A stretch of DNA of 64,000 bases, taken from positions 32,001 through 96,000 of the IMG/VR virus record IMGVR_UViG_3300050821_009780. One strand, 5' to 3'. This document shows positions 1 to 18,402 of the stretch, piece by piece. This DNA comes from a virus. Position numbers and translations under genes: made by a program. Each line of letters opens with the position of its first letter. The stretch's first letter is position 1. Below the pieces are notes generated by a model, which saw only the letters and a program-made list of their open reading frames with translations, had not been told where the DNA came from and did not search any database.

Positions 1-3000
1 GCCAGGCCGGCCGGGTGCACGTCGTTGACCCCGGCCCGCTCCACCCCGGTATCCCAGTCCTGGGCGGCCGAGTTGAGCGAGGTCTCCCCCTCCATCGTGG
101 TGATCGTGGCCTGGTCCCCGCTGGAGTTGACGAAGGCGATGATGGCCGGAAGCTGGGTCTTCATGCCGCCGCTGAAGTCGGCGTCGGAGATGGCGGAAGG
201 CGGGGTCCAGCCGATCAGGCCGCGCCCGCCGGAACCGGACGCGGCCGGGTTCCAGCCCGACTCGCCGTCAATGGACGCCACCGCGCCGGCGGCGGCGACC
301 TTGTGGCCGCCGAACAGGTTGGCCAGCAGGTAGCTGTAGCCCTCCTTGGCGTTGGCCAGGTCGGACCCGGTGGCCCCGCCGGCCGCTGCCGCCGCCGCGG
401 CGGCCTTGGCGGCCTGGGCGGCGGAGATGGCCGCCGTGAGCGCGGCGGTGTTCAGGTTCAGGTTGACGGCGAAGGCGGCGCCGCCGGAGGCCAGCCCGGG
501 CACCATCAGGGGCACCATCATGCTGGACCCGTCGCCGCCGACCGCGCCGCCGCCGGCCCACTGCTGACTGGCCGCGATGCCCCGGCTGCCGGCCCCGAGC
601 CAGGAGTCGGCCTGGTTCAGGCGGTGCAGGTAGCCGGGGCCGTACTGCTGCTCCAGCGCCATCCGGGCGGACTTGCGGACCACGAACTCGCCAGGCATGA
701 GCATGGCGTGCACGCTGTCGTGCTCCCCGGCCCCGGCGACGGAGCCGTGCTGCGCCTGGCGGCTGGCCCCGATGGGGCCGCCGGATGCCTTGACGGTGAC
801 GGTGACGTTGCCAGACGCGTTCTTGATGCCGGTGTCGATGTCGTTGGTGATGGCGGTCTCGGCACCCTGGGCGGCGTTCCCCAGCGCGGTGGTAATCGCG
901 GTGCCTGCCTTGGTGACGGCAGCGGGCAGGGTGCTGTTGAAATAGGTATTCATCGGGGTCTCGACCTGACCCACGAACACCAGCATGGCCGAGGCCCAGG
1001 CGGTGCCCCAGGTCGAGACCATCTTGGTGAGGTAGCTGTTCATGGTGACGGTGAAGAACAGCCCGAGCGGGGTCTCCACGGCCTTCTGGAAGTCGGCGGC
1101 GGCGTTGGACCAGGTAGAGGTCCACAGCGCAGCCGTCTTGCTGAAGTACCCGGCGATGGTGACGGTGAAGAACAGCCCGAGCGGGGTGATCACGGCCTTC
1201 TGGAAGTCGCCGGCGGCGTTGGACCAGGAGGTGTTCCACAGCGAGACGGCCTTGTTCAGGTACCCGGACATGGTGACGGTGAAGAACAGCCCGAGCGGGG
1301 TCTCGACCGCCTTCTGGAAGGTGCTGGCGGCGGTGGACCAGGTAGAGGACCAGAGCGCGCCCGCCTTGCTCAGGTAGCCGGCCAGGGTGGAAGTGAAGAA
1401 GGTCTGGACGGGGGTGACGACATCCTTGGCGAAGCTGGTTCCCGCCCCCGTCCACAGCGTGCTCATCTCGGTGGTGGCGCTGCCCGCCCACCCCTTGAGG
1501 CTGCTGGTAAAGAACGTCTGCACGGGCGTGGCGACGTCCTTGGCGAAACTGGTTCCCGAGCCGCTCCAGAGCGTGTTCATCTCGGTCGTGGCCGAGCCGC
1601 TCCAGCCCTTGAGGCTGGAGGTGAAGAAGGTCTGGACCGGGGTAACGACATCCTTGTTGAAGCTGCTCTGCGCGCCGGACCAGAGCGTGCTCATCTCGCT
1701 GGCGGCGCTGCCGGTCCACCCCTTGAGGCTGGAAGTAAAGAACGTCTGGGCCGGGGTAACGACGTCCTTGGCAAACGCGCTCTGCGAACCGGACCACATG
1801 GTGGTCATCTCAGAGCTGGCGCTGCTGCTCCAGCTCTTGAGGCTGGAGGTAAAGAACGTCTGGACGGGGGTGACGACGTCCTTGGTGAACGCCCCCTGGG
1901 AACTCGACCAGGCGGCGCTGACCTCGGTGCCCGCGCTGCCGGTCCAGCCCTTGAGGCTGCTGGTAAAGAACGTCTGCGCCGGGGTGACGACATCCTTGGT
2001 GAACGCGGCCTGCGAGCCAGACCAGGCGGTGCTGACCTCGGTGCCCGCCGTTCCCGCCCACCCCTTGAGACTGGAGGTAAAGAAGGTCTGGGCGGGGGCG
2101 CTGACATCCTTGGCGAACGCGCTCTGCGACCCGGCCCAGGCGGCGGTCACCGAGCTCTGCGCGGTCTTGGCCCAGCCGGGGAGCTGGCTGGCGAAGAAGG
2201 TCTTCGCCGGATCTGCGACGTTCTTGGTCAGGGCCGAGCCGGAAGCGGTCCACAGGGCGGCGACCGAGGCCTGCGCGGCCTTGACCCAGCCGGGGAGCTG
2301 CCCGGTCAGGAGGTTCTTGACCGGGGTCGTCAGGTCGGCGTTGAGCGAGGTGCCGGCCTTGGTCCACATGCCGGCCAGGATGGTGGAGTCCGCCGCGACG
2401 TCCGCCTTGAGCACGCCGCCGAACGCCGTGTTGAACTCCACCCCCATGAGGGTGGCGGCGACCTTCCACAGGTTCGCAATCTGCCCGAGGGCGGTCTGGA
2501 ACTCCCCGACGAGGCCGCCGCCCGCGAAGTGCTGCACGCCGCCCTTGACGGTGCCCGCGGCTGCGGGCTGCGGACCCTGCTTCTTCGCCTGCTGGGCGGC
2601 CATCTGGGCCGGGGTGAGCTGCGCCGTCGTCCCCTTGTGCGCCTGGTTGAGCTGGTCCAGCACGCCGGGGCCGTGCTGCGCCTTCAGCGCGTCGGCGGCG
2701 GGCTTCTGCAGGACGAACTCGCCGGGGGTGAGCATCGCGGGCACGGTGTCGCCCTGGCCCTGGCCGGGGACGTGGCCGCCCGCCGCCTTCTTGACCGGCG
2801 GGGGAGGGCCGCCGCCGGGGAGGCCGGGGAGGCTGCTCCCCGCCCCGGCCGGGATGGAGCCGAAGAGCGTGTTGAAGCTGGCCGCGAAGTTGGCCGCCGC
2901 CTGCGCGCCGGCCTTCGAGAACGCCTGGGTGAGCGGGTTGGTGTTGGCCTGCGGCGTGATGATGGTCTTGTTGATGGTGGCGATTGCCTGGTTGCTGAAG

Positions 3001-6000
3001 CCCAGCGAGTGGAGCAGGGTGTCCAGCTGCGTCAGGTCGGTCTTGGGACTGATGTTCAGCGAGTTGAGGAAATCAATCTGCTGCTTGTTGAGGTTCAGCT
3101 TGTCGTAAGTCTTTTGCAGGTTGTCCTGGAACGTAACGGTGCTTGCCCCGACGACCAGCCCGTCGATAATCTTGATTTGCGCTGTGGTAAGACCCAGGTT
3201 GCTCAGCAGCTTGTTAACCGACTGCAAATTAGCACCCGGCTTAATCTGCATCTGGTTGATTTTATCGATTATGCCCTGGGGAAGACCGAGGTCATGGAGA
3301 ACGGTGTTCAAGTCGTTCTGGAACGGGGTCATATTCGGGTTGATAACCTGAGCATTGATTTTCCCGATTTCCGTCGGGGTCAGCTTCAGGTCGGACAGCA
3401 TTTTATCCAGCTGGGTCAGGTCGGTCTTGGGCGTCAGCTGGAGCTTGTCCACCGCCTGTATCTGGGCCGGGGTCAGCCCGATCTGCTTGAAGAACGTGTT
3501 CCAGGCGGTGAAGTTGGTCCCCGGCCCGATGATCAGCTTGTTGATGGCGGCGATGTTCTTCTGCGATATCCCGAGGCTCGACAGCCAGGCATCGTAGACG
3601 TGGAAGTCGGTCTTCGGCCCGATCGTGAACTTGTTGATGGCGGTGATCTGGGCCGGGGTCAGGCCGAGCTTGACGTAGTAGTTGTCGAAGGCCTGCGCCC
3701 CGACCGGCGGCGCGATGACCATTGCATCGATCTTGGAAATGGCGGCCGGGGTCAGGTGCAGCTGGCTGAGCAGCTTGTTGATGTCGGTAAGGTTGGCGCC
3801 CGGCTTGATAACCAGCGCGTTGACGGCGGATATCTGCTTGGGAGTGAGCTTCAGGGTGTTGAGGTAGGCGTCGATGGCGGTCGTGCTGACCGGGACGTGC
3901 ATAATGAGCTGGTTGATAGCGGCGACCTGCGGCGGAAGGAGCCCTATCTTCGCCAGCATGGCGTCGATGGCGGTCACGCTGGTGGTCGGGGCAATCCGCA
4001 GCTTGTTGATCGCAGTTATCTTCTGGATGGACACGCCCGTGTGCGCGGCCAGCTCGTCGATTCCGGCCCAGTCCACCTGGGGCTTGATGACCTGCTTGTT
4101 GGCCGCGACGACGTTATCCGACCAGAGGGTCAGCGCAGTCTGCCGGGCCACGCCCATCGCGCTCAGGGTGGTCAGGAACTCGGCCTTGGCCTGGGCCATC
4201 CCCGTCGGGGTGGTCCCGTACACGGCAATCAGCGCGTTGGCGATGGCGTTGGCACCGGTGATGTCCTGGGGGGAGATGATCCCCTGCTTGAGCTGATCCT
4301 GGGCCGAGTGGATGGTCGTCTCGAAGTTCGCGACGGCCTTGGTCATGCCCGGCATGTTGACCAGCGCCGCGCCGATCGCCTGGTTGAGGTCGGTGTTGAC
4401 GGCGGCAGCCAGGTTGATGGTGTCCTGCTGCAGGTTGGACGACGAGGTCTCCAGGTACCCGACCTGCTTGTTGAGGTCCGCCGTCGTCTTGGACGCCTGC
4501 TGGTTGCCGCCCGACCACTTCACCAGGGCCGCGTAGGTGTCCGCCCCGGTGTAGCCCATCTGCTGCGCCAGGGCGTAGGCGGCGTTGGTCGCCTCCTTCG
4601 AGCCGTCGCCCTGGGCCAGCAGCACGTTGACCATGTCCTGCCCGGCGTGCTGCAGGGAGCCGTAGGACGCGGCGGTGTTGCCGGCGGCGGCGTTCTGCAG
4701 CTGGAGCTGGCTGTAGAGTCCCTGCGCCGCAGTGGCGTTCTGCTCCCAGGACTGGCGCAGCGTGAGGCTGTTGGCGTTCAGCCCGGTCATGGACGCGCCG
4801 GCCGCCTTGGCGTTCGTGCTGACGGTGTTGATGCCCGTCAGGAACGTCTCCAGCTTGGTCTCGCCGCCGGTGACCATGGTGTAGAACTGGGTGAAGTCGC
4901 CGGTGAGGGTGGTGATCTGGCTGTTGGTGGTCTCGCTGGCCAGGGCGACGGCGTCGATGGAGTTGCCGACCTGGTTCATGTGAGTCGAGACCTGGTAGCC
5001 GGCGACCCCCATGTTGGTCCAGCCGGTGACCAGCGCGTTGACCTTGCTTATCTGGACCGACATGCTGTCGGTGACCTTGACCCCGGCCAGGTCCATCAGG
5101 GCGAACGCCTGGTCGCCGGTCACCCCGAACTTCTTCATGCTGTACGAGACCGTCTGGATGGCGGCGTCCCACCGGTCGTTATCCGCGACCAGGGCCGCGT
5201 AAGCGGCGCCGCTCTGCGCCTTCAGCTGCTGGAACGACCCGAACAGGTCGGTGATGGCGCTCTGGAAGTGCCCCGAGGTGATGTCGCCCCAGAAGCTGAC
5301 GGCACCCCCGGCTCCCGTCTGGTTGACCGGCTGGTTGAGCTCCTGCCGCAGCACGCCGTACTGCGTGCCGAGCTTCTGCATGTCGGTCTGGAGCTGACTG
5401 AACCCCTGGGCGGCGTTGAGGTTGTTCAGCTGGGTGTTCATGGCGGAGATCTCGGCCGGGATCGCGCCGCTGGCCTTGTTGAACTGGTAGAACTCGTAGG
5501 CCGCGCCGCCGACGGCACCGGCGATGGCGAGCCAGGCCCCGGCCGAGATGCCGGCCAGCGCCCCACCGATCTTCTGGATGGTGCCGCCGAGCCCGGCCGC
5601 CTCCGGCTCGGCGTCCTTGGCAGCGCCGCCCAGCTTGGCGACGCCCGACTCCAGCTGGCTCACGTTCGCGCCGCCGACCAGGGCCATGGAGGCGGTGGCC
5701 TTCTCCACGCCGCCCAGCCCGGACATCGCGGCCTGGGTCTCCGGGGTAATCTTCCCCAGGTCGGCCGCCAGGCCCTCGGCGCTCTTGCCGGATGCCGCGA
5801 CGGAGATGGCCGCGGCGGCAGCCTGCTTGTCGGTCAGCCCGAACGCGTCGGCCAGGGCCTGGACATCGCTGTTCTGCGACGTGACCTTGACCATCTGGTC
5901 GTAGGTCAGGCCCAGGTTCCCGGCCATGGCCAGGGCGGCGCTGTCGCCCTTGGCGAACAGGGTGCCGATGTTCTCCAGTTCCGGGGTGAGCTGCCCCATC

Positions 6001-9000
6001 TGGATCAGCTTGGCGTTGGACGCGCCGACCGAGCTGGCGAGCCCGCCGAAGACGTTGCTGCCGCCCGTGATCTTGGCGACCAGGCCGCCGAACTGGGTGA
6101 TGAGGGTGCCCGTGTACCGGGTCAGGTCGATGAGGGCGGTGGAGAGCAGCCCGCCGTAGTGGACGACGGCGAAGACGGCGATGCCGAAGGCAATCACCTG
6201 CGGGCCCATGGCGTTCATGGCCTTGGCCAGCAGCGAGAAGGCGTAGGCGAGTCCCTCGAAGAGCAGCTCGGAGACGTGGGTCATCTGCCCGGCCTGGAGG
6301 AACTCGGCCCCGATCTTGAGGATGGAACCGCCGATGGAGCCGAGGATCTTCAGGTCGTTGACGGCGGTCTCGATGAGACCGGACAGCTGCCCCGAGTGGG
6401 AAGTGAGCGCCTGATCTACCTTGATGAAGGTGTCGGTGATGAAGGTGCCGGTCTTCTGGGCAACCCCCTGCATCAGGCCGAGGACGCTGGTGAACGTCTG
6501 GCCGAACGCCTTGATGGGCGCGGTCTTCTGGGTCAGGGCGTCGATGGCGGCCCCGTACATGGTGACCACGGTCGGGGCCATGGCCGCCTGGATGGACCGG
6601 ATGGTCACCGGCATGGGCTTCATGGTCGAGTCGAGCGTGCCCATCTTGGTGCTCAGCGGGCCGATGTGATCGGTGCCGAGCACGTCCGCGCCGGTGCCGA
6701 GGGCGTCCAGCGCGGTGTGCAGCCCCTGGACGTGCGCGAGCAGGTCCAGGACGGACGGCTCGGCGGCGACGCCGAACGCGCCGAGGGCGGTGCCGGCGGC
6801 GATGACCGCGGGCACCAGGACGATGAAGAAGTCGATCAGGGTGTGCAGGGCGACGGCCCACACGCTGATGGTGGCGGCGAACGGGATGCTCTTGAACGCC
6901 CCGCCGAACAGGGTCAGGTCCTTGGTCCAGCCGCCCCAGGCGGCGATGGCGAGGTTGACCAGGCCGGTGGTCTTGGCTACGGAGGCGCCGCCCTGGTCTA
7001 CGGACTGCGTGGCGCCATCCTGCGCGTTCTTGACGAGGAGGGCGGCGGCTGCCGCGTTCTTGGCCGCTTCGGCAGCGCTCATCGTGGACTGGCCGAGCTT
7101 GTCGTAGCTGCCGGAGGCCCCGCTGACGGCGTCCCCGGCCTGCTGCGCGGCCAGCGCCTCGGCGACCATGCTCTTGGCGAACTGCGCCGCCGTCGGCGGC
7201 CCCTGGGCCTGGAGGCCGAACCAGTGCTCGTACTGCGCGGCGTTGGACTCCAGCGCAGCACCGTTCGCGTTCAGCGCGGCATCGGCCTGCTGCACCACCG
7301 GGATGAACCGGGCCATGGACAGCTCGCCGGACTGCACGGAGCCGACGAACCGGGTCCAGTCCACGTCGTTCGCGGCACTGCCGACCTGCTTCAGCGCGGC
7401 GGCGTCGGCCATGGCAGCGGCGGCGTTGGCGTTGAACCCCTTGGCCGAATCGTCGGCGTCGGTGCCGGCCGTCTGGGCGGCCTTTCCCGCGGCCAGCAGC
7501 GCGGCCTGGGTGTACAGCTGGCGGTTGCCCAGGTCGGTGGTGGCCTGGCCCATCTTCGCCAGCTTGGCGGACGCCTCGTCGGCCGACATGCCGGTGGCCA
7601 GGAACGCGTCGGCCAGCTTCCTGGCGGCGGCGGCCTGGATGCCGGCGGAATCACTGGTGAACTTGGCGGCGTTGGAGGCCCGCGCGGCCTCGTAGTCGAA
7701 GGAGTCGCCCGCCTGGTGAATCTCGTCGGCGGCACCGTGCACGGCCCCGCCCAGCCGGGTCCAGGCGGCATCGTCGTTAGGGTTGGGTGCCGACTTGTCC
7801 ACGTCACTGCCCAGCGTGGACAGCACGGCCTCAGCCTGCCGGACAACAGGGATGAACCGGGCCATGGACAGCTCGCCGGACTGCACGGAGCCGACGAACC
7901 GGGTCCAGGCGGCATCATCCGCCGGGTTGGGCGCGGCCTTGGCCAGGGCGGCGGCTTGCTCGGCCAGGGCGGCGTCGGCCTGCTTCACCACCGGGATGAA
8001 CCGGGCCATGGACAGCTGGCCGGACTGGACCAGAGCGATGAACTTCGCCCAGTCGTCGTCATCCGCCGGGGTGGGGACCGGGATGTCCGGCGGAGGCCCG
8101 CCGCCGCCCCCGGCGTGGCCGGCCGTGACCAGTTCCTCGGTGACCAGCTCGGTGACGTGATCGTTGGCGTGAAGGCGGGCCTGGAACGCCATCCACTCGG
8201 CGATGGCCTTGTTGATGCCCGTCAGCTGGACGGCGGTCTTGGCGTAATCGGGAACCTCGTTCAGCTTGGCAATCCAGGCTTCCAGCTGGGCCTTGGCCTG
8301 GTCGTCGGTGAACCGGGCGGTGGTGTCGAGCACCTCGGGGACGATGCCCAGGTCGCGGAGCCAGATCTCCAGGTCTCCCTCGGCCGCTGCCGCGCTGAAG
8401 ACGGCGTTCACGGTGACGCTATCCGGGAGCGCCTCCAGCTGGGCTATCAGGGCGGTGAGATCGGCCTTGGCCTTCTCGTCGTCGAAGACCACCCGGACGG
8501 TCACCTCGGCGGGAACGGACCGCAGCTGGGCCAGCAGCGCGGCGAGGTCATCCTTGGACGCCCGGTCGTTGAAGACCGCGTTGATGGTGACGTTCTCGTT
8601 CTCCGGGGTCTTGCCGACCGCGATAAGCGACGTGGTGATGTGCTCGGGGATGCTGTGGAGCACGGACTTCCACAGCGCGACGTCGGCCAGGCCCTGCTCC
8701 GGGTCGGCCTTCAGCTCGGTGGTAACCGAGGTCGGCACCCCGGCCAGGGCGGAGTTCAGGGCCTGCGCCCCGGCGACGCTGCCCTCCTCGCCCAGCTGGG
8801 TAACGGACTTGTGGGTACCCTCGATCGCGTTGTAGTAGGCGAGGGCGGCGTCGGTGTTGGACTTGTACAGCGCCGCCCGGCGCTCCAGCTCGGCGTTGAA
8901 GTCACGGTACAGGGCGGTCTGCTTCTGCAGGTACTGCAGGTACTGGTCGGCGGTGAAGTACCCGGCCCACTCGGCACGGTTCATGAGGAGCTTCTGGGTG

Positions 9001-9710
9001 TACTCGGTCTGGCGCCACGCGTAAGCCTGCTGGGGCGTGGTGAACATGAGCCAGCGCTGCCGGTTCAGCAGCGTCTCGTACTCCAGCTCCTTGCGCATGT
9101 CGGCCAGGTGCGTGCCCATGTCCGACCGTCCGCCGAACAGCGACTGCTCGTTGTACCGCTTGTAAGCATCCGACGTCGTGTTAACGGCGGCGGTCTCATC
9201 CTTTAGTACACTTATTTCTTCCTTGCGGACGGAGATAAGCCGCTGCTCGTCCGATATCTCGTCAACAACAGCCCGGTCCAGCTTCTCCAGCGTGCTGGTG
9301 ACATTCCGGTACGCCTCGTCGGTCGCCGTGACCTTGTTTACCGTCTCGTCCCGGACGGTAAACGAAGAAATAGTATCCTTGTACCGCTTATAGGACTCAC
9401 TGGCCAGGTCAACGGCCGACACTTCTTCTTTAAGTCCGTCAAGAACAGAACTGTGGTAGCTCTTGTAAGAAGCAGCAAGGGCCTCAATCGAATTCTTCTG
9501 CAGCTTCAGCGACTCGATTGAGGTGTCGCTGTAGTCCTTGGATGCCGCCGCCAGCGAGTCAAGTGCAGTCCGCTCCTCGGTGAGCTTGCTGATCTCATCC
9601 TTGTGAGCGTCTACCAGCTTCTGGTACTCGGCAGTCTGCGCCTTAGCGGCGTCGCCTCCGGCCTTTCCCAGTGCCTCCAGGGCAGCCTTAGCCTCGGCTG
9701 CCTTGCGCAT
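1..9710 (-). CDS. Tape measure protein, 3' partial, >3200 aa, with a phage-tail-lysozyme-like domain at the window edge
   Basis: Open minus frame from a TGA at 9752-9750 to the window edge. It is missing from the ORF track because it has no stop; + ORF 15..9206 is its antisense shadow. Ala-rich, with W/F-spaced repeats, two GDTVPAMLTPGEFV-type motifs and AAAGAVASIDGESGWNP..GLIGW..VERAG near 1-340. It follows the tail chaperones. First in-frame ATG is 9710; true start may be 9781 (see findings). Confidence 0.93.
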   Translation of the reverse strand, partial: MRKAAEAKAALEALGKAGGDAAKAQTAEYQKLVDAHKDEISKLTEERTALDSLAAASKDYSDTSIESLKLQKNSIEALAASYKSYHSSVLDGLKEEVSAVDLASESYKRYKDTISSFTVRDETVNKVTATDEAYRNVTSTLEKLDRAVVDEISDEQRLISVRKEEISVLKDETAAVNTTSDAYKRYNEQSLFGGRSDMGTHLADMRKELEYETLLNRQRWLMFTTPQQAYAWRQTEYTQKLLMNRAEWAGYFTADQYLQYLQKQTALYRDFNAELERRAALYKSNTDAALAYYNAIEGTHKSVTQLGEEGSVAGAQALNSALAGVPTSVTTELKADPEQGLADVALWKSVLHSIPEHITTSLIAVGKTPENENVTINAVFNDRASKDDLAALLAQLRSVPAEVTVRVVFDDEKAKADLTALIAQLEALPDSVTVNAVFSAAAAEGDLEIWLRDLGIVPEVLDTTARFTDDQAKAQLEAWIAKLNEVPDYAKTAVQLTGINKAIAEWMAFQARLHANDHVTELVTEELVTAGHAGGGGGPPPDIPVPTPADDDDWAKFIALVQSGQLSMARFIPVVKQADAALAEQAAALAKAAPNPADDAAWTRFVGSVQSGELSMARFIPVVRQAEAVLSTLGSDVDKSAPNPNDDAAWTRLGGAVHGAADEIHQAGDSFDYEAARASNAAKFTSDSAGIQAAAARKLADAFLATGMSADEASAKLAKMGQATTDLGNRQLYTQAALLAAGKAAQTAGTDADDSAKGFNANAAAAMADAAALKQVGSAANDVDWTRFVGSVQSGELSMARFIPVVQQADAALNANGAALESNAAQYEHWFGLQAQGPPTAAQFAKSMVAEALAAQQAGDAVSGASGSYDKLGQSTMSAAEAAKNAAAAALLVKNAQDGATQSVDQGGASVAKTTGLVNLAIAAWGGWTKDLTLFGGAFKSIPFAATISVWAVALHTLIDFFIVLVPAVIAAGTALGAFGVAAEPSVLDLLAHVQGLHTALDALGTGADVLGTDHIGPLSTKMGTLDSTMKPMPVTIRSIQAAMAPTVVTMYGAAIDALTQKTAPIKAFGQTFTSVLGLMQGVAQKTGTFITDTFIKVDQALTSHSGQLSGLIETAVNDLKILGSIGGSILKIGAEFLQAGQMTHVSELLFEGLAYAFSLLAKAMNAMGPQVIAFGIAVFAVVHYGGLLSTALIDLTRYTGTLITQFGGLVAKITGGSNVFGGLASSVGASNAKLIQMGQLTPELENIGTLFAKGDSAALAMAGNLGLTYDQMVKVTSQNSDVQALADAFGLTDKQAAAAAISVAASGKSAEGLAADLGKITPETQAAMSGLGGVEKATASMALVGGANVSQLESGVAKLGGAAKDAEPEAAGLGGTIQKIGGALAGISAGAWLAIAGAVGGAAYEFYQFNKASGAIPAEISAMNTQLNNLNAAQGFSQLQTDMQKLGTQYGVLRQELNQPVNQTGAGGAVSFWGDITSGHFQSAITDLFGSFQQLKAQSGAAYAALVADNDRWDAAIQTVSYSMKKFGVTGDQAFALMDLAGVKVTDSMSVQISKVNALVTGWTNMGVAGYQVSTHMNQVGNSIDAVALASETTNSQITTLTGDFTQFYTMVTGGETKLETFLTGINTVSTNAKAAGASMTGLNANSLTLRQSWEQNATAAQGLYSQLQLQNAAAGNTAASYGSLQHAGQDMVNVLLAQGDGSKEATNAAYALAQQMGYTGADTYAALVKWSGGNQQASKTTADLNKQVGYLETSSSNLQQDTINLAAAVNTDLNQAIGAALVNMPGMTKAVANFETTIHSAQDQLKQGIISPQDITGANAIANALIAVYGTTPTGMAQAKAEFLTTLSAMGVARQTALTLWSDNVVAANKQVIKPQVDWAGIDELAAHTGVSIQKITAINKLRIAPTTSVTAIDAMLAKIGLLPPQVAAINQLIMHVPVSTTAIDAYLNTLKLTPKQISAVNALVIKPGANLTDINKLLSQLHLTPAAISKIDAMVIAPPVGAQAFDNYYVKLGLTPAQITAINKFTIGPKTDFHVYDAWLSSLGISQKNIAAINKLIIGPGTNFTAWNTFFKQIGLTPAQIQAVDKLQLTPKTDLTQLDKMLSDLKLTPTEIGKINAQVINPNMTPFQNDLNTVLHDLGLPQGIIDKINQMQIKPGANLQSVNKLLSNLGLTTAQIKIIDGLVVGASTVTFQDNLQKTYDKLNLNKQQIDFLNSLNISPKTDLTQLDTLLHSLGFSNQAIATINKTIITPQANTNPLTQAFSKAGAQAAANFAASFNTLFGSIPAGAGSSLPGLPGGGPPPPVKKAAGGHVPGQGQGDTVPAMLTPGEFVLQKPAADALKAQHGPGVLDQLNQAHKGTTAQLTPAQMAAQQAKKQGPQPAAAGTVKGGVQHFAGGGLVGEFQTALGQIANLWKVAATLMGVEFNTAFGGVLKADVAADSTILAGMWTKAGTSLNADLTTPVKNLLTGQLPGWVKAAQASVAALWTASGSALTKNVADPAKTFFASQLPGWAKTAQSSVTAAWAGSQSAFAKDVSAPAQTFFTSSLKGWAGTAGTEVSTAWSGSQAAFTKDVVTPAQTFFTSSLKGWTGSAGTEVSAAWSSSQGAFTKDVVTPVQTFFTSSLKSWSSSASSEMTTMWSGSQSAFAKDVVTPAQTFFTSSLKGWTGSAASEMSTLWSGAQSSFNKDVVTPVQTFFTSSLKGWSGSATTEMNTLWSGSGTSFAKDVATPVQTFFTSSLKGWAGSATTEMSTLWTGAGTSFAKDVVTPVQTFFTSTLAGYLSKAGALWSSTWSTAASTFQKAVETPLGLFFTVTMSGYLNKAVSLWNTSWSNAAGDFQKAVITPLGLFFTVTIAGYFSKTAALWTSTWSNAAADFQKAVETPLGLFFTVTMNSYLTKMVSTWGTAWASAMLVFVGQVETPMNTYFNSTLPAAVTKAGTAITTALGNAAQGAETAITNDIDTGIKNASGNVTVTVKASGGPIGASRQAQHGSVAGAGEHDSVHAMLMPGEFVVRKSARMALEQQYGPGYLHRLNQADSWLGAGSRGIAASQQWAGGGAVGGDGSSMMVPLMVPGLASGGAAFAVNLNLNTAALTAAISAAQAAKAAAAAAAAGGATGSDLANAKEGYSYLLANLFGGHKVAAAGAVASIDGESGWNPAASGSGGRGLIGWTPPSAISDADFSGGMKTQLPAIIAFVNSSGDQATITTMEGETSLNSAAQDWDTGVERAGVNDVHPAGL
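1040..2130 (-). repeat. Tandem coding repeats in the tape measure gene (about 36-aa and 40-aa units)
   Basis: Recurring ggtgacggtgaagaacagcccgagcgggg at 108-nt spacing, and ttgaggctg..gt(a/g)aagaa at 120-nt spacing (FFTVT / FFTSSLKGW units). Confidence 0.85.
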
Positions 9711-9845
9711 GAGGTCGCCGAAATCGGCAATTGCTTTATAAAGGACAACTCAGGAGGTAACCAGTATTCCTCTCCGGCCATAACTCAGCCGCCAGGGAAT
9801 ACTGCAACAGGGTGGAATTCACCCCGGCTCACCTCCCTCCTCCAC

Positions 9846-10948
9846 TCAGCCGACCGTCTTGATGTCGAACGACTGCTTCCCGTGCCCGTCCGTCCAGCCG
9901 CTCCGCAGGGCCTCGTAGGAGCCCTGCGCGTTCTTCCGGGCCGCCGCCTCCGTGTCTCCCTGGAACACCCACGCCGGGAGCACGTCGTCCGCCTCCGGCC
10001 CGTACTGCACCAGCTTGTCCAGCCCCGGGTCGGGGGGCGGGTTCAGCCGCGGGTCGTCGCGGTAATCTGCCGCGACCACCGGGCCGCGCATCTCCTCCAG
10101 CTCCCGCTCCTCCGGGGTCAGCTTCCGGACGCTGCCGGTTCCGTCTATGGAAATCGCCCGCACCGCCTCCAGCAAGGGGTTCTCCTTCCTGCCCCAGTCC
10201 ACCAGCCCCAGGCCCGCCTGCGCGGCGACGAACAGCGAGACGGTCTTGGCCTGCCACTCGGCCAGGCTGGCCCGCTCCTTCTGCTCTAGACGGCGGCGGG
10301 TGCCCGCCGCTTCCGCGCACTGCCGGAGCCGGCAGACGGGGAGATCGAGGAGGTACTCGTCGCTCCATCCGTACTCGGCGCTGAGGAGGTCGAAGAGGCT
10401 GGCGTAGGCTCCGGCAAGTGAAGATCCTGGGCTTCGGGTGCCGTCTCCGCCTGGCCCATCCCGGTGGCCTTCTTCGCCACCGTCCACAGGGCCCGGAGCT
10501 TTTTTCCCAGGGACTGCAGCTCGGGTGCCTCGTTCGCGACAATCACCTCGAACAGCGCGAGGGTGTCCCCGACCTCCGGGTTAAACAGCTCCTCGTTGAA
10601 CCGGTCCCACAGCTCCTGGTTGTGCTCGGACTCCTGCTTGGTGATGTGCTGCGGCTTCTTCTCGCTCAGCCCGGCGGGCTTGCACATGGACTGCAGGAAC
10701 GCGACGGTCTCCTGCTCGGCGTCGGGGACGGAGACCAGCAGCAGGCCGAGCAGCTTCTGCCCGAACGCGGCCTGGTCCTCGTTGAAATCGAGCTGGGCGA
10801 TGGCGGGTCCGGCACCGCGGGTGAGGATGCGGAGCAGCCGGAACATCTGCCGGGTCTTCAGCCGCACCACCTCGACGGGGAACCCCGACTCCAGCTTGAC
10901 GGTGACTGCTTCCGGATCGATTCTGTCCAGCTCGGACTCTGCTGCCAC
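9846..10948 (-). CDS. Tail assembly chaperone, -1 frameshifted long form (gpGT-like)
   Basis: ORF 9846..10487 lies in the -1 frame of 10286..10948 just after a slippery site. It contains LFDLLSAEYGWSDEYLLDLP, typical of T domains. Confidence 0.85.
10286..10948 (-). CDS. Tail assembly chaperone (gpG-like)
   Basis: Lies between major tail and tape measure; SD GGAGG upstream; contains the slippery LGKK. Confidence 0.88.
   Translation of the reverse strand: MAAESELDRIDPEAVTVKLESGFPVEVVRLKTRQMFRLLRILTRGAGPAIAQLDFNEDQAAFGQKLLGLLLVSVPDAEQETVAFLQSMCKPAGLSEKKPQHITKQESEHNQELWDRFNEELFNPEVGDTLALFEVIVANEAPELQSLGKKLRALWTVAKKATGMGQAETAPEAQDLHLPEPTPASSTSSAPSTDGATSTSSISPSAGSGSARKRRAPAAV
10499..10508 (-). 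other. Programmed -1 frameshift site GGGAAAAAAG
   Basis: In-frame CTG GGA AAA AAG contains both G_GGA_AAA and A_AAA_AAG heptamers. Confidence 0.88.
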
Positions 10949-17814: not shown

Positions 17815-18402
17815 TCACCTCTTCGTCGCGGCCAGATAGGCCGCTATCTCGTCGGAGAACTGCTCGTACCAGCCCAGCGAACCATTGCACTTCGTGCACA
17901 ACAGTCCCCGGACACACTTGCCGCAGGAAGTAGGGCCTGAGCAACAGCGCCTATCGTGATCAACAGCAAAGTGCATGAACACGAACTTAGAACCGCGACG
18001 CTCGCCCTCAGCCATCTCCTGCAAGGACCGACTGCATATCCGACAACGTCCTTGCTGCTCGTCGTACATGCGCCAGTAGTCATCAGGATCTATGTTGAAC
18101 TGACGACGCAGCTTCCGCTCCCAGCGGGCATCAGCTTCCCGGGCTACCCGCTCAGTATCACGAGCATGCCAGGAAGCCTTCGCGTACTCGCGCCTACAGT
18201 CCTTGCACGGCACCATGAGACGACCATCTGGATACTTATAGAAGTCGTCTCTATCCTTCTCACGAGTGCACTGATAGCACGTCTTACGAGTCGGACGACA
18301 GGAAGGCCCGCAGTGCTTCTGAACTGAGCCTGTCGGCTGAAACTCTTCTCCGCAGCCAACGCACACCCTAGTAGGCCACTTAAAGTCAGGAGGTCTAACC
18401 AT
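17815..18402 (-). CDS. Endonuclease VII-family free-standing homing endonuclease
   Basis: YWRMYDEQQGRCRIC..AVDHD..VRGLLCTKCNGSLG; visibly lower GC than its flanks. Confidence 0.9.
   Translation of the reverse strand: MVRPPDFKWPTRVCVGCGEEFQPTGSVQKHCGPSCRPTRKTCYQCTREKDRDDFYKYPDGRLMVPCKDCRREYAKASWHARDTERVAREADARWERKLRRQFNIDPDDYWRMYDEQQGRCRICSRSLQEMAEGERRGSKFVFMHFAVDHDRRCCSGPTSCGKCVRGLLCTKCNGSLGWYEQFSDEIAAYLAATKR

Follow-up and report, generated by a model that had tools for sequence, protein, structure and literature searches.

The question raised by this locus is how a phage can make a tape measure protein (TMP) when the reading frame of its gene is broken at codon 7. The window, that is, the whole 64,000-nucleotide stretch analysed, derives from an uncultured soil actinophage with a GC content of 68.9%, and matches to PHROG profiles give the gene order major tail (phrog_4971/36442), chaperone and TMP. 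The T-extension of the chaperone lies in the -1 frame relative to chaperone G (10286-10948) and stops at TGA 9848-9846; a canonical slippery heptamer could not be identified for this G-T shift. The TMP gene itself is recognized as a very long coiled-coil-rich ORF, located 3' of the major tail and G/G-T chaperone genes and displaying TMP-family homology. Counted from the internal ATG 9710, the full protein comprises 3638 amino acids (codons). Neither a sigma-70-like promoter nor a terminator was detected nearby, between 9600 and 10000.

On the minus strand, the TMP start ATG (9781-9779) opens a short segment that ends with TGG (9763-9761). This is followed by the 11-nt gap and then by the codons GTT(9749-9747) GTC CTT TAT AAA GCA ATT GCC GAT TTC GGC GAC CTC ATG(9710). 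An earlier note had described the sequence of this break, its coordinates and the out-of-frame ATG 9781, all of which proved correct to the base; its statement that the long ORF has the stop TGA 9752-9750 as its upstream limit agrees with our reading of the minus strand. Excision of exactly 9760-9750 leads to MAGEEYWVVLYKAIADFGDLMRK, and an intact relative, L030, encodes VAGEEYWVVLYKAIADFGDLMRK unbroken, i.e. the same 23 N-terminal residues except the start codon. As L030 specifies these residues without any break, the window carries a clean 11-nt insertion; indeed, alignment of the two DNAs displays a single one, between TGG and GTT. The natural-looking N-terminus that the earlier note obtained by skipping the gap is thus the one that L030 encodes, and the contiguous MAGEEYW-VVLY that it proposed to look for in relatives is found there as VAGEEYWVVLYK. 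The junction is also continuous in P0017 (MPEWVVLYK) and P0004 (MAGEEYWSVVYR). Two features of phiHau3-type bypassing are therefore present: TTA directly follows the last sense codon TGG (9763-9758), and removal of a short block, here 11 nt, restores a conserved contiguous junction, as in L030.

Table 1. Features of the chaperone-TMP region of the window (positions in the window; minus strand throughout).
Feature	Position	Strand	Sequence or evidence
Tail assembly chaperone, T-extension frame (G-T)	9846..10487	-	phrog_34893 and phrog_33493 matches
Purine-rich SD-like stretch, GGAGGGAGGTGA (9840-9829), 6 nt, GTG 9822-9820	9822..9840	-	alignment with L005 and L004
Mini-ORF, 28 codons, third frame, GTG 9822 to TAA 9738-9736	9736..9822	-	HNH 3'-end remnant
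Stem 5' arm, CAGTATTCC	9796..9804	-	pairs with 9770-9762; 0/300 shuffles as good
TMP segment 1, MAGEEYW	9761..9781	-	ATG GCC GGA GAG GAA TAC TGG
Stem 3' arm, GGAATACTG	9762..9770	-	inside TMP segment 1; abuts take-off codon
Coding gap, 11 nt, TTACCTCCTGA	9750..9760	-	TTA 9760-9758 first; TGA 9752-9750 last
TMP segment 2	3..9749	-	resumes at GTT 9749 and runs off window end; phrog_167 and phrog_33360 (tape measure)

The comparison set comprised 43 distinct alleles, i.e. the window and 42 related gene versions, of which 18 are intact and 25, drawn from Logan, JGI and IMG/VR assemblies, are gapped (the homologues P0008 and P0009 have no DNA locus in the set, and the locus of P0014 is L017). At 11 codon positions, the gapped alleles display 28 distinct gap variants, 4-16 nt long, each of which opens with TTA. 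Take-off and landing codons are the same triplet in 12 variants, synonymous in 5, alike at two of three positions in 9 and poorly matched in 2, so that 26/28 match at two positions or more (binomial 3e-19); the match is absent from the L004 and L040/L042 gaps. The landing UGA of the window agrees with the take-off UGG at 2/3 positions, a third-position mismatch shared with L005, and L007 and L049 land on TGT. Gap lengths cover all three frame classes, and homologous gaps differ between relatives by non-multiples of three while their flanks stay coding (11 nt in the window versus 8 in L005; 14 and 13 nt in L011, 13 and 13 in L020, 16 and 16 in L007). Two in-frame gaps (L008, L055) include an internal stop, and 17 of the 19 3n+1 gaps begin with TTAA or TTAG and so carry a +1-frame stop; these gaps are therefore beyond rescue by frameshifting. 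The break in the TMP gene is real and far beyond chance, and its grammar recurs in 28 distinct variants from independent assemblies. The geometry proposed in the earlier note (take-off on UGG, UUA in the A site, landing on UGA, resumption at GUU) fits this grammar, in which the opening TTA is common to all 28 variants and a landing match to 26.

The TMP is thus probably expressed via programmed translational bypassing, i.e. a ribosome hop, a reading to which we give a probability of roughly 0.78. Initiation at ATG 9781 would yield MAGEEYW and place peptidyl-tRNA-Trp on UGG in the P site, with UUA occupying the A site. This codon, nearly unused by the phage, is presumably decoded slowly in a high-GC actinobacterial host. 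The stalled ribosome would drop its codon-anticodon pairing and slide over 11 nt, the tRNA would re-pair at the near-cognate UGA (9752-9750) and decoding would restart at GUU 9749. The expected product begins with MAGEEYW-VVLYKAIADFGDLMRK, as intact relatives encode unbroken. The rarity of the codon is manifest: none of the 311 leucine codons of the TMP is TTA, and the genome displays about 22 in-frame TTA per 40,000 codons. No tRNA genes were found in the phage genome. A genome-wide GC3-based scan for further TTA frame breaks gave a signal too noisy to read.

A stem whose arms are separated by the TMP start may form again once the ribosome has passed and thereby draw the mRNA forward. In L005 and L004 this stem covaries, with CAGTACTCC pairing with GGAGTACTG. 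When stems were tested locus by locus against shuffles, a 5' stem abutting the take-off codon was significant at 8/24 gapped loci versus 0/32 mock sites in intact alleles. RNAalifold did not recover the 5' stem from a mixed alignment because MAFFT misaligned the two lineages. In the minimum free energy fold, 9760-9752 pair with 9837-9829 and no hairpin forms within the 11-nt gap; ATG 9781 has no good SD and sits in a predicted hairpin loop.

It could be argued that the 71 nt upstream represent a relic in decay, the insertion having simply inactivated the old start region, and that the TMP is made from ATG 9710 (MRKAAE...) only, with its first 20 residues lost. This ATG is the first canonical start in the long ORF and the one picked by gene callers, Met is common at this position across the family, a TMP short of 20/3658 residues might still function, and few TMP copies are needed. 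However, ATG 9710 is not preceded by an SD, as the earlier note had remarked (the preceding GCCGATT, likewise found in intact alleles, encodes a conserved A-D-F), and Met is missing at the MRKAAE position in L008, L023 and L025. Furthermore, comparison of the alleles points to strong purifying selection on the codons upstream of the gaps. In the lineages that share a gap, codons upstream of the internal Met give pN/pS of 0-0.2 in most pairs, with pS of 0.4-0.9, on the assumption that alleles with a shared gap owe it to common descent and have seldom undergone gene conversion from intact ones. The window and L005 differ there by 8 synonymous changes and 1 non-synonymous change, and the start codon of segment 1 is preserved, as ATG or GTG. 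An untranslated region would also leave the strict TTA and landing-codon grammar of the 28 variants unexplained. The relic is therefore improbable as the whole account, and ATG 9710 may serve as a second start. As an indicator, purifying selection on upstream codons serves only as a proxy for the trans-frame product.

Two other accounts are very unlikely. A -1 frameshift after reading of the gap codons TTA CCT CCT GAG would give MAGEEYW-LPPE-VVLYK, and the gaps of the window (11 nt) and L005 (8 nt) are indeed both 3n+2; yet no slippery heptamer marks a frameshift site here. With TGA 9752-9750 closing the -1 frame, the slip would need to shift tRNA-Glu from GAG onto UGA. Such a product would hold four extra residues at the junction, versus none or one in relatives, its synthesis needs decoding of the avoided TTA, and the mechanism is unusable by related gaps that belong to other frame classes or are in frame with stops. 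No more credible is the view that the break stems from faulty sequencing or assembly, or that metagenomics caught a defective genome bearing a lethal mutation. The record is a single metagenome-assembled contig, but L005 and L006, which come from different runs, are gapped at the same site, with TTACCTGA, and their protein occurs on 9 contigs. All 25 gapped alleles, whether from Logan, JGI or IMG/VR assemblies, obey one grammar, and an 11-nt insertion is atypical of sequencing errors.

Bypassing thus remains the preferred reading of the break, and the neighbourhood of the gaps suggests how it arose. An HNH gene lies directly upstream in 13/25 gapped alleles versus 0/18 intact ones. These nucleases belong to three different HNH families (Endonuclease_7-type, HNH, HNH_3/AP2), and the HNH ORFs of L005, L008 and L011 terminate inside the TMP start. 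The link to HNH homing-endonuclease cassettes is a stronger association that the earlier note had missed. Alignment with L005 and L004 indicates that the window keeps only a 3' remnant of about 65 nt of such a cassette, the nuclease gene being gone; the stem next to the take-off codon belongs to this remnant. In both relatives the HNH ORF runs through the stretch equivalent to window 9822..9840, which, being homologous to the HNH 3' coding end, is therefore a cassette remnant. The chaperone-TMP junction probably once harboured an HNH endonuclease gene, and the gap is probably a 'savior' insertion that disrupted the target of this homing endonuclease, through which the phage would have gained immunity to the nuclease.

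At about even odds, TTA-led gaps constitute a general, selectable 'savior indel' class of high-GC actinophages, driven by HNH nucleases and orphaned after nuclease loss. At least three HNH families would invade the chaperone-TMP junction, and the surviving target insertions would be those that ribosomes can hop, i.e. those that combine a rare A-site UUA with a matching landing codon and, in most cases, a stop in the +1 frame (TTAA/TTAG). The 3' end of the nuclease cassette would supply the 5' stem that drives the slide, and once the nuclease is lost, as in the window, the hop would persist as an orphan. If this holds, TMP output would be sensitive to the host supply of tRNA-Leu(UAA); the earlier note had likewise suggested that TMP synthesis may depend on the level of this tRNA.

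To our knowledge, established natural bypassing is limited to T4 gene 60 and its relatives and to the yeast mitochondrial 'byps'. The terminase of Streptomyces phage phiHau3, to which the earlier note had pointed as a precedent, does exist as such (PMC5009743; PMC10732093): it displays UUA-led gaps of 7-10 nt, and its junction peptide was detected by mass spectrometry in E. coli (PMC10732093). UUA bypass has likewise been attributed to the large terminase of the StrepC.1 and S. catenulae prophages (Smith et al. 2013; Antonov et al. 2023, PMC10732093). The phiHau3-type terminase is a candidate case, supported in part by experiment and comprising four sites in three genes, and the words 'HNH' and 'homing' are absent from the text of that paper (PMC10732093). 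Like this terminase, the TMP gene of a high-GC actinophage carries the rare UUA directly after the last sense codon, a short non-coding block (11 nt, 4-16 in relatives), a junction conserved in intact homologues, a landing codon that resembles the take-off codon in most variants (at 2/3 positions in the window), and a 5' stem-loop and SD-like element as proposed stimulators. Unlike it, the gene encodes a tape measure and is interrupted at its beginning rather than in mid-gene; there are 28 variants instead of 4, the gaps show a clear link to HNH homing-endonuclease genes, the landing codon of the window is a stop triplet, the host is probably not Streptomyces, and the TMP hop is a prediction from sequence.

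In T4 gene 60, ribosomes bypass 50 nt that lie in the homing-endonuclease cassette of mobA (Huang 1988; Bonocora 2011, both as cited in PMC5009743; see also Manning & Atkins, bioRxiv 2022.08.31.505936). As in that system, an essential gene is gapped and, in 13/25 gapped alleles (the window itself keeps a remnant only), adjoins a gene for a homing endonuclease; the landing codon mostly matches the take-off codon, as re-pairing of the P-site tRNA would need, a 5' stem could drive forward movement, and the gap is plausibly an insertion that shields the target from the nuclease. However, the window has a gap of 11 nt and not about 50, a sense codon, UUA, and not a stop after take-off, and neither a take-off hairpin nor a nascent-peptide signal was identified in the TMP; the nucleases are unrelated, and that of the window is gone. 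When E. coli reporters display hungry-codon sliding or stop-hopping (Weiss 1987; Gallant & Lindsley; both cited in PMC5009743 and PMC10732093), an A site left empty at a slow codon allows the peptidyl-tRNA to detach and to pair again with a similar codon a short distance downstream, as proposed for the TMP. Whereas those events were low-level and took place in synthetic constructs, the TMP arrangement occurs naturally, is conserved and seems to be needed for the full-length N-terminus. On balance, the TMP break seems best likened to the phiHau3 terminase in its signal and to T4 gene 60/mobA in its origin.

To these cases the TMP family contributes 28 natural variants of the gap, spread over 11 codon positions and diverse in length, frame and landing codon. 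The intact alleles are internal controls, and the variants provide a natural mutagenesis series for the rules of short hops, which appear to involve an A-site UUA, a stop in the +1 frame, some tolerance in the landing codon and a 5' stem. UUA-led hops tied to homing endonucleases would join the phiHau3 and T4 paradigms and offer an origin for the gaps. As gene callers truncate such TMPs, their true N-terminus is missed by annotation pipelines.

Searches of cultured phage genomes with the break region or the TMP N-terminus, at the DNA and protein levels, gave zero matches. The major tail protein alone was matched, in phages of Microbacterium and Arthrobacter, which are the hosts of the nearest cultured relatives; the TMP of Microbacterium phage Magritte, tried as a comparison, is unrelated and uninformative. 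No relatives were found in the genome contigs scanned, and therefore no prophage host can be assigned. An initial scan of viral contigs with a single protein gave no relatives either, and the pattern GGNGARGARTAYTGGTTA occurred at 46 loci across viral contigs, 0 of them related. Within the window, the in-frame TTA of the mini-ORF (9783-9781) overlaps the TMP start as TTATG, and the same genome may use TTA as a pseudo-stop at such gene junctions.

The 5' end of the tape measure protein (TMP) gene matches, at every base of the minus strand, the description in an earlier note of a coding sequence broken after its seventh codon by an 11-nt gap. The long TMP frame is closed by the TGA that ends this gap, and no canonical start was found in that frame between this TGA and ATG 9710. 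Reading the TTA in the zero frame would lead to an unrelated 56-aa peptide. The window TMP contains 311 leucine codons, none of them TTA, and in-frame TTA codons number about 22 per 40,000 codons across the genome. The window covers bases 32001-96000 of an IMG/VR virus record (143.5 kb, 68.9% GC) in which no tRNA genes were found. Judged by its major tail protein, the virus is an actinophage, closest among cultured phages to Microbacterium phage Magritte and to Arthrobacter phages. Upstream of TMP, the chaperone G/T frames (9846-10948) share about 200 nt, offset by -1 as expected, and a scan of this shared stretch for a canonical X XXY YYZ heptamer gave no match.

Features around the TMP break and related sites (window coordinates unless marked genome)
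Feature	Position	Strand	Remarks
Major tail protein	11699-11067	minus	
Tail assembly chaperone G	10948-10286	minus	
T extension of chaperone	10487-9846	minus	-1 frame
Spacer		minus	135 nt, between T extension and TMP ORF
TMP ORF		minus	3638 codons, downstream of spacer; tape-measure PHROG matches
HNH 3' remnant	about 9840-9782	minus	SD-like GGAGGGAGGTGA, GTG 9822, 28-codon mini-ORF
TMP segment 1	ATG 9781 to TGG 9763-9761	minus	opens MAGEEYW; TGG is last codon
Gap	9760-9750	minus	TTACCTCCTGA, directly after TGG
TGA in gap	9752-9750	minus	long frame resumes at GTT 9749
Predicted helix	9804-9796 with 9770-9762		CAGUAUUCC with GGAAUACUG
Second predicted helix	9760-9752 with 9837-9829		gap with SD-like stretch
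Intact Endonuclease_7-type HNH genes	17815-18402; genome 20820-21065 (outside window)	minus	
TTATG junctions	9783-9779; 20987-20983; 51170-51166	minus	

Fifteen relatives of 1910-3042 aa were recovered from a database with residues 1-420 of TMP as query. The contiguous N-terminus that the earlier note expected in relatives does exist: a version of it opens five of the 15 (e.g. MAGEEYWSVVYRAVADF and MPEWVVLYKAVADF) and is also found in L030, an intact allele close to that of the window, which has the same 23 residues and whose DNA alignment reveals one clean 11-nt insertion in the window. Most other relatives are called from the equivalent of MRKAAE (the N-terminus starting at ATG 9710) or MADF, and two start further downstream; where the DNA upstream of such short starts was fetched, it carries the conserved N-terminal codons interrupted by short inserts. 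A further 52 loci came from IMG/VR and JGI metagenome scans, and gaps were mapped by aligning intact N-terminal peptides with DNA through spliced dynamic programming permitting arbitrary jumps. This yielded 43 distinct alleles, of which 18 are intact; the 25 gapped ones show 28 distinct variants of the gap, spread over 11 codon positions.

When each gap is set at its right-most protein-equivalent position, TTA forms the 5' end of all 28 variants. The landing codon (the triplet that closes the gap) is identical to the take-off codon preceding the gap in 12 (e.g. TGG...TGG, GGT...GGT, AAG...AAG, GTC...GTC, GCT...GCT), synonymous with it in five, in agreement at two of three positions in nine (including TGG/TGA in the window and the related locus L005, and TGG/TGT in L007 and L049) and poorly matched in two, an overall agreement with a binomial probability of 3e-19. 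Gaps range from 4 to 16 nt and represent all three frame classes. Two in-frame gaps contain a stop (TAA in the 15 nt of L008, TGA in the 9 nt of L055), and of the 19 gaps whose length is 3n+1, 17 open with TTAA or TTAG, hence a +1-frame stop. Homologous gaps vary by non-multiples of three (11 nt in the window and 8 in L005; 14+13 in L011, 13+13 in L020, 16+16 in L007), and the segments flanking them stay coding. Neither frameshifting nor readthrough nor error explains this gap set. As judged from sequence, take-off of the P-site tRNA followed by re-pairing at the landing codon can account for it. In L004, the gap (1473-1485) lies between TGG and AAT and reads TTAATCCAGT, with a zero-frame TAA and no landing match; its upstream stem is that of L005. 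This element may have decayed, or may use another route.

Initiation at ATG 9710, downstream of the gap, may also occur. Between the upstream start and this internal Met, however, pN/pS within lineages sharing a homologous gap is 0-0.2 in most pairs, at pS 0.4-0.9; over 19 codons, the window and L005 differ by eight synonymous changes and one non-synonymous change, and one starts with ATG and the other with GTG. L008, L023 and L025 lack the Met of MRKAAE, so that the internal start is unavailable in these alleles. ATG 9781 is devoid of a good SD; the TTATG that it forms with an in-frame TTA of the SD-led mini-ORF may couple the two. In the "site B" lineage (L002, about 1417; L008, about 1387), the TMP start position is an ATA within ATAG, overlapping the TAG stop of an upstream HNH ORF or mini-ORF and kept in both loci despite a pS of 0.8; ribosomes may re-initiate at this ATA, or may arrive from the upstream ORF by a stop-led hop of 5 nt.

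For the region 9850-9700 (151 nt), the predicted MFE is -66 kcal/mol (z = -4.6). Its predicted helix ends inside the take-off codon, with the start codon in the loop, and a compensatory change preserves it in L005 and L004 (CAGUACUCC with GGAGUACUG). Of 24 gapped loci, 8 have a comparable stem next to the take-off codon with p <= 0.03 against shuffles, as against none of the 32 mock sites taken from intact alleles. By extension from work on T4 gene 60 (bioRxiv 2024.12.09.627546), the 5' stem would re-fold behind the stalled ribosome and drive its slide. The second predicted helix is not conserved in L005 and is given little weight.

Immediately before the TMP start, 13 of the 25 gapped alleles carry an HNH-type gene, against none of 18 intact ones (Fisher 1.6e-4). 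These genes belong to three Pfam families, Endonuclease_7 (PF02945), HNH (PF01844) and HNH_3 with AP2, and end within about 40 nt of the TMP start, mostly 3-30 nt inside its coding sequence. In four more gapped alleles, that of the window among them, nothing but the 3' end of an HNH-type gene is left. In T4 gene 60, the bypassed insert is thought to shield the target of the adjoining MobA nuclease (PMC5009743); the window, with its HNH gene remnant, offers a parallel. For the phiHau3 terminase, UUA-led bypass of blocks of 7-10 nt was put forward in 2013; the 2023 paper that backed it with Streptomyces reporter data and with a junction peptide seen in E. coli found three such genes among 100, and mentions neither tape measure genes nor HNH nucleases (PMC10732093). 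A rare UUA close to a candidate bypass was noted in 2025 in the Bxb1 primase (PMC12646305). Our literature search found no published description of TMP gaps or of their HNH link.

TMP itself (3-9710) carries long arrays of ~35-40-aa repeats (e.g. ...LTPAQI.AINKL..., residues about 1900-2300 and 2500-3000), repeated "VTPVQTFFTSSLKGW" units, a weak TAL-repeat-like Pfam match and, towards the C-terminus of the complete protein, a lysozyme-type domain (PF18013). In the TTATG junctions, which include one at genome position 17001 outside the window, the ATG is the very point where coding potential (GC3 above 0.85) moves into the +2 frame, with no stop there in the upstream frame; the TTA may be a pseudo-stop or a 2-nt hop site. 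Two intact HNH genes lie elsewhere in the genome, and just downstream of the one within the window, a gene with a glycosyltransferase-like N-terminus (ATG 17808) reads GCT TTA GCC CCC at codons 12-15. This TTA could lead an in-frame hop of 6 nt whose landing codon is synonymous, or be a plain Leu codon.
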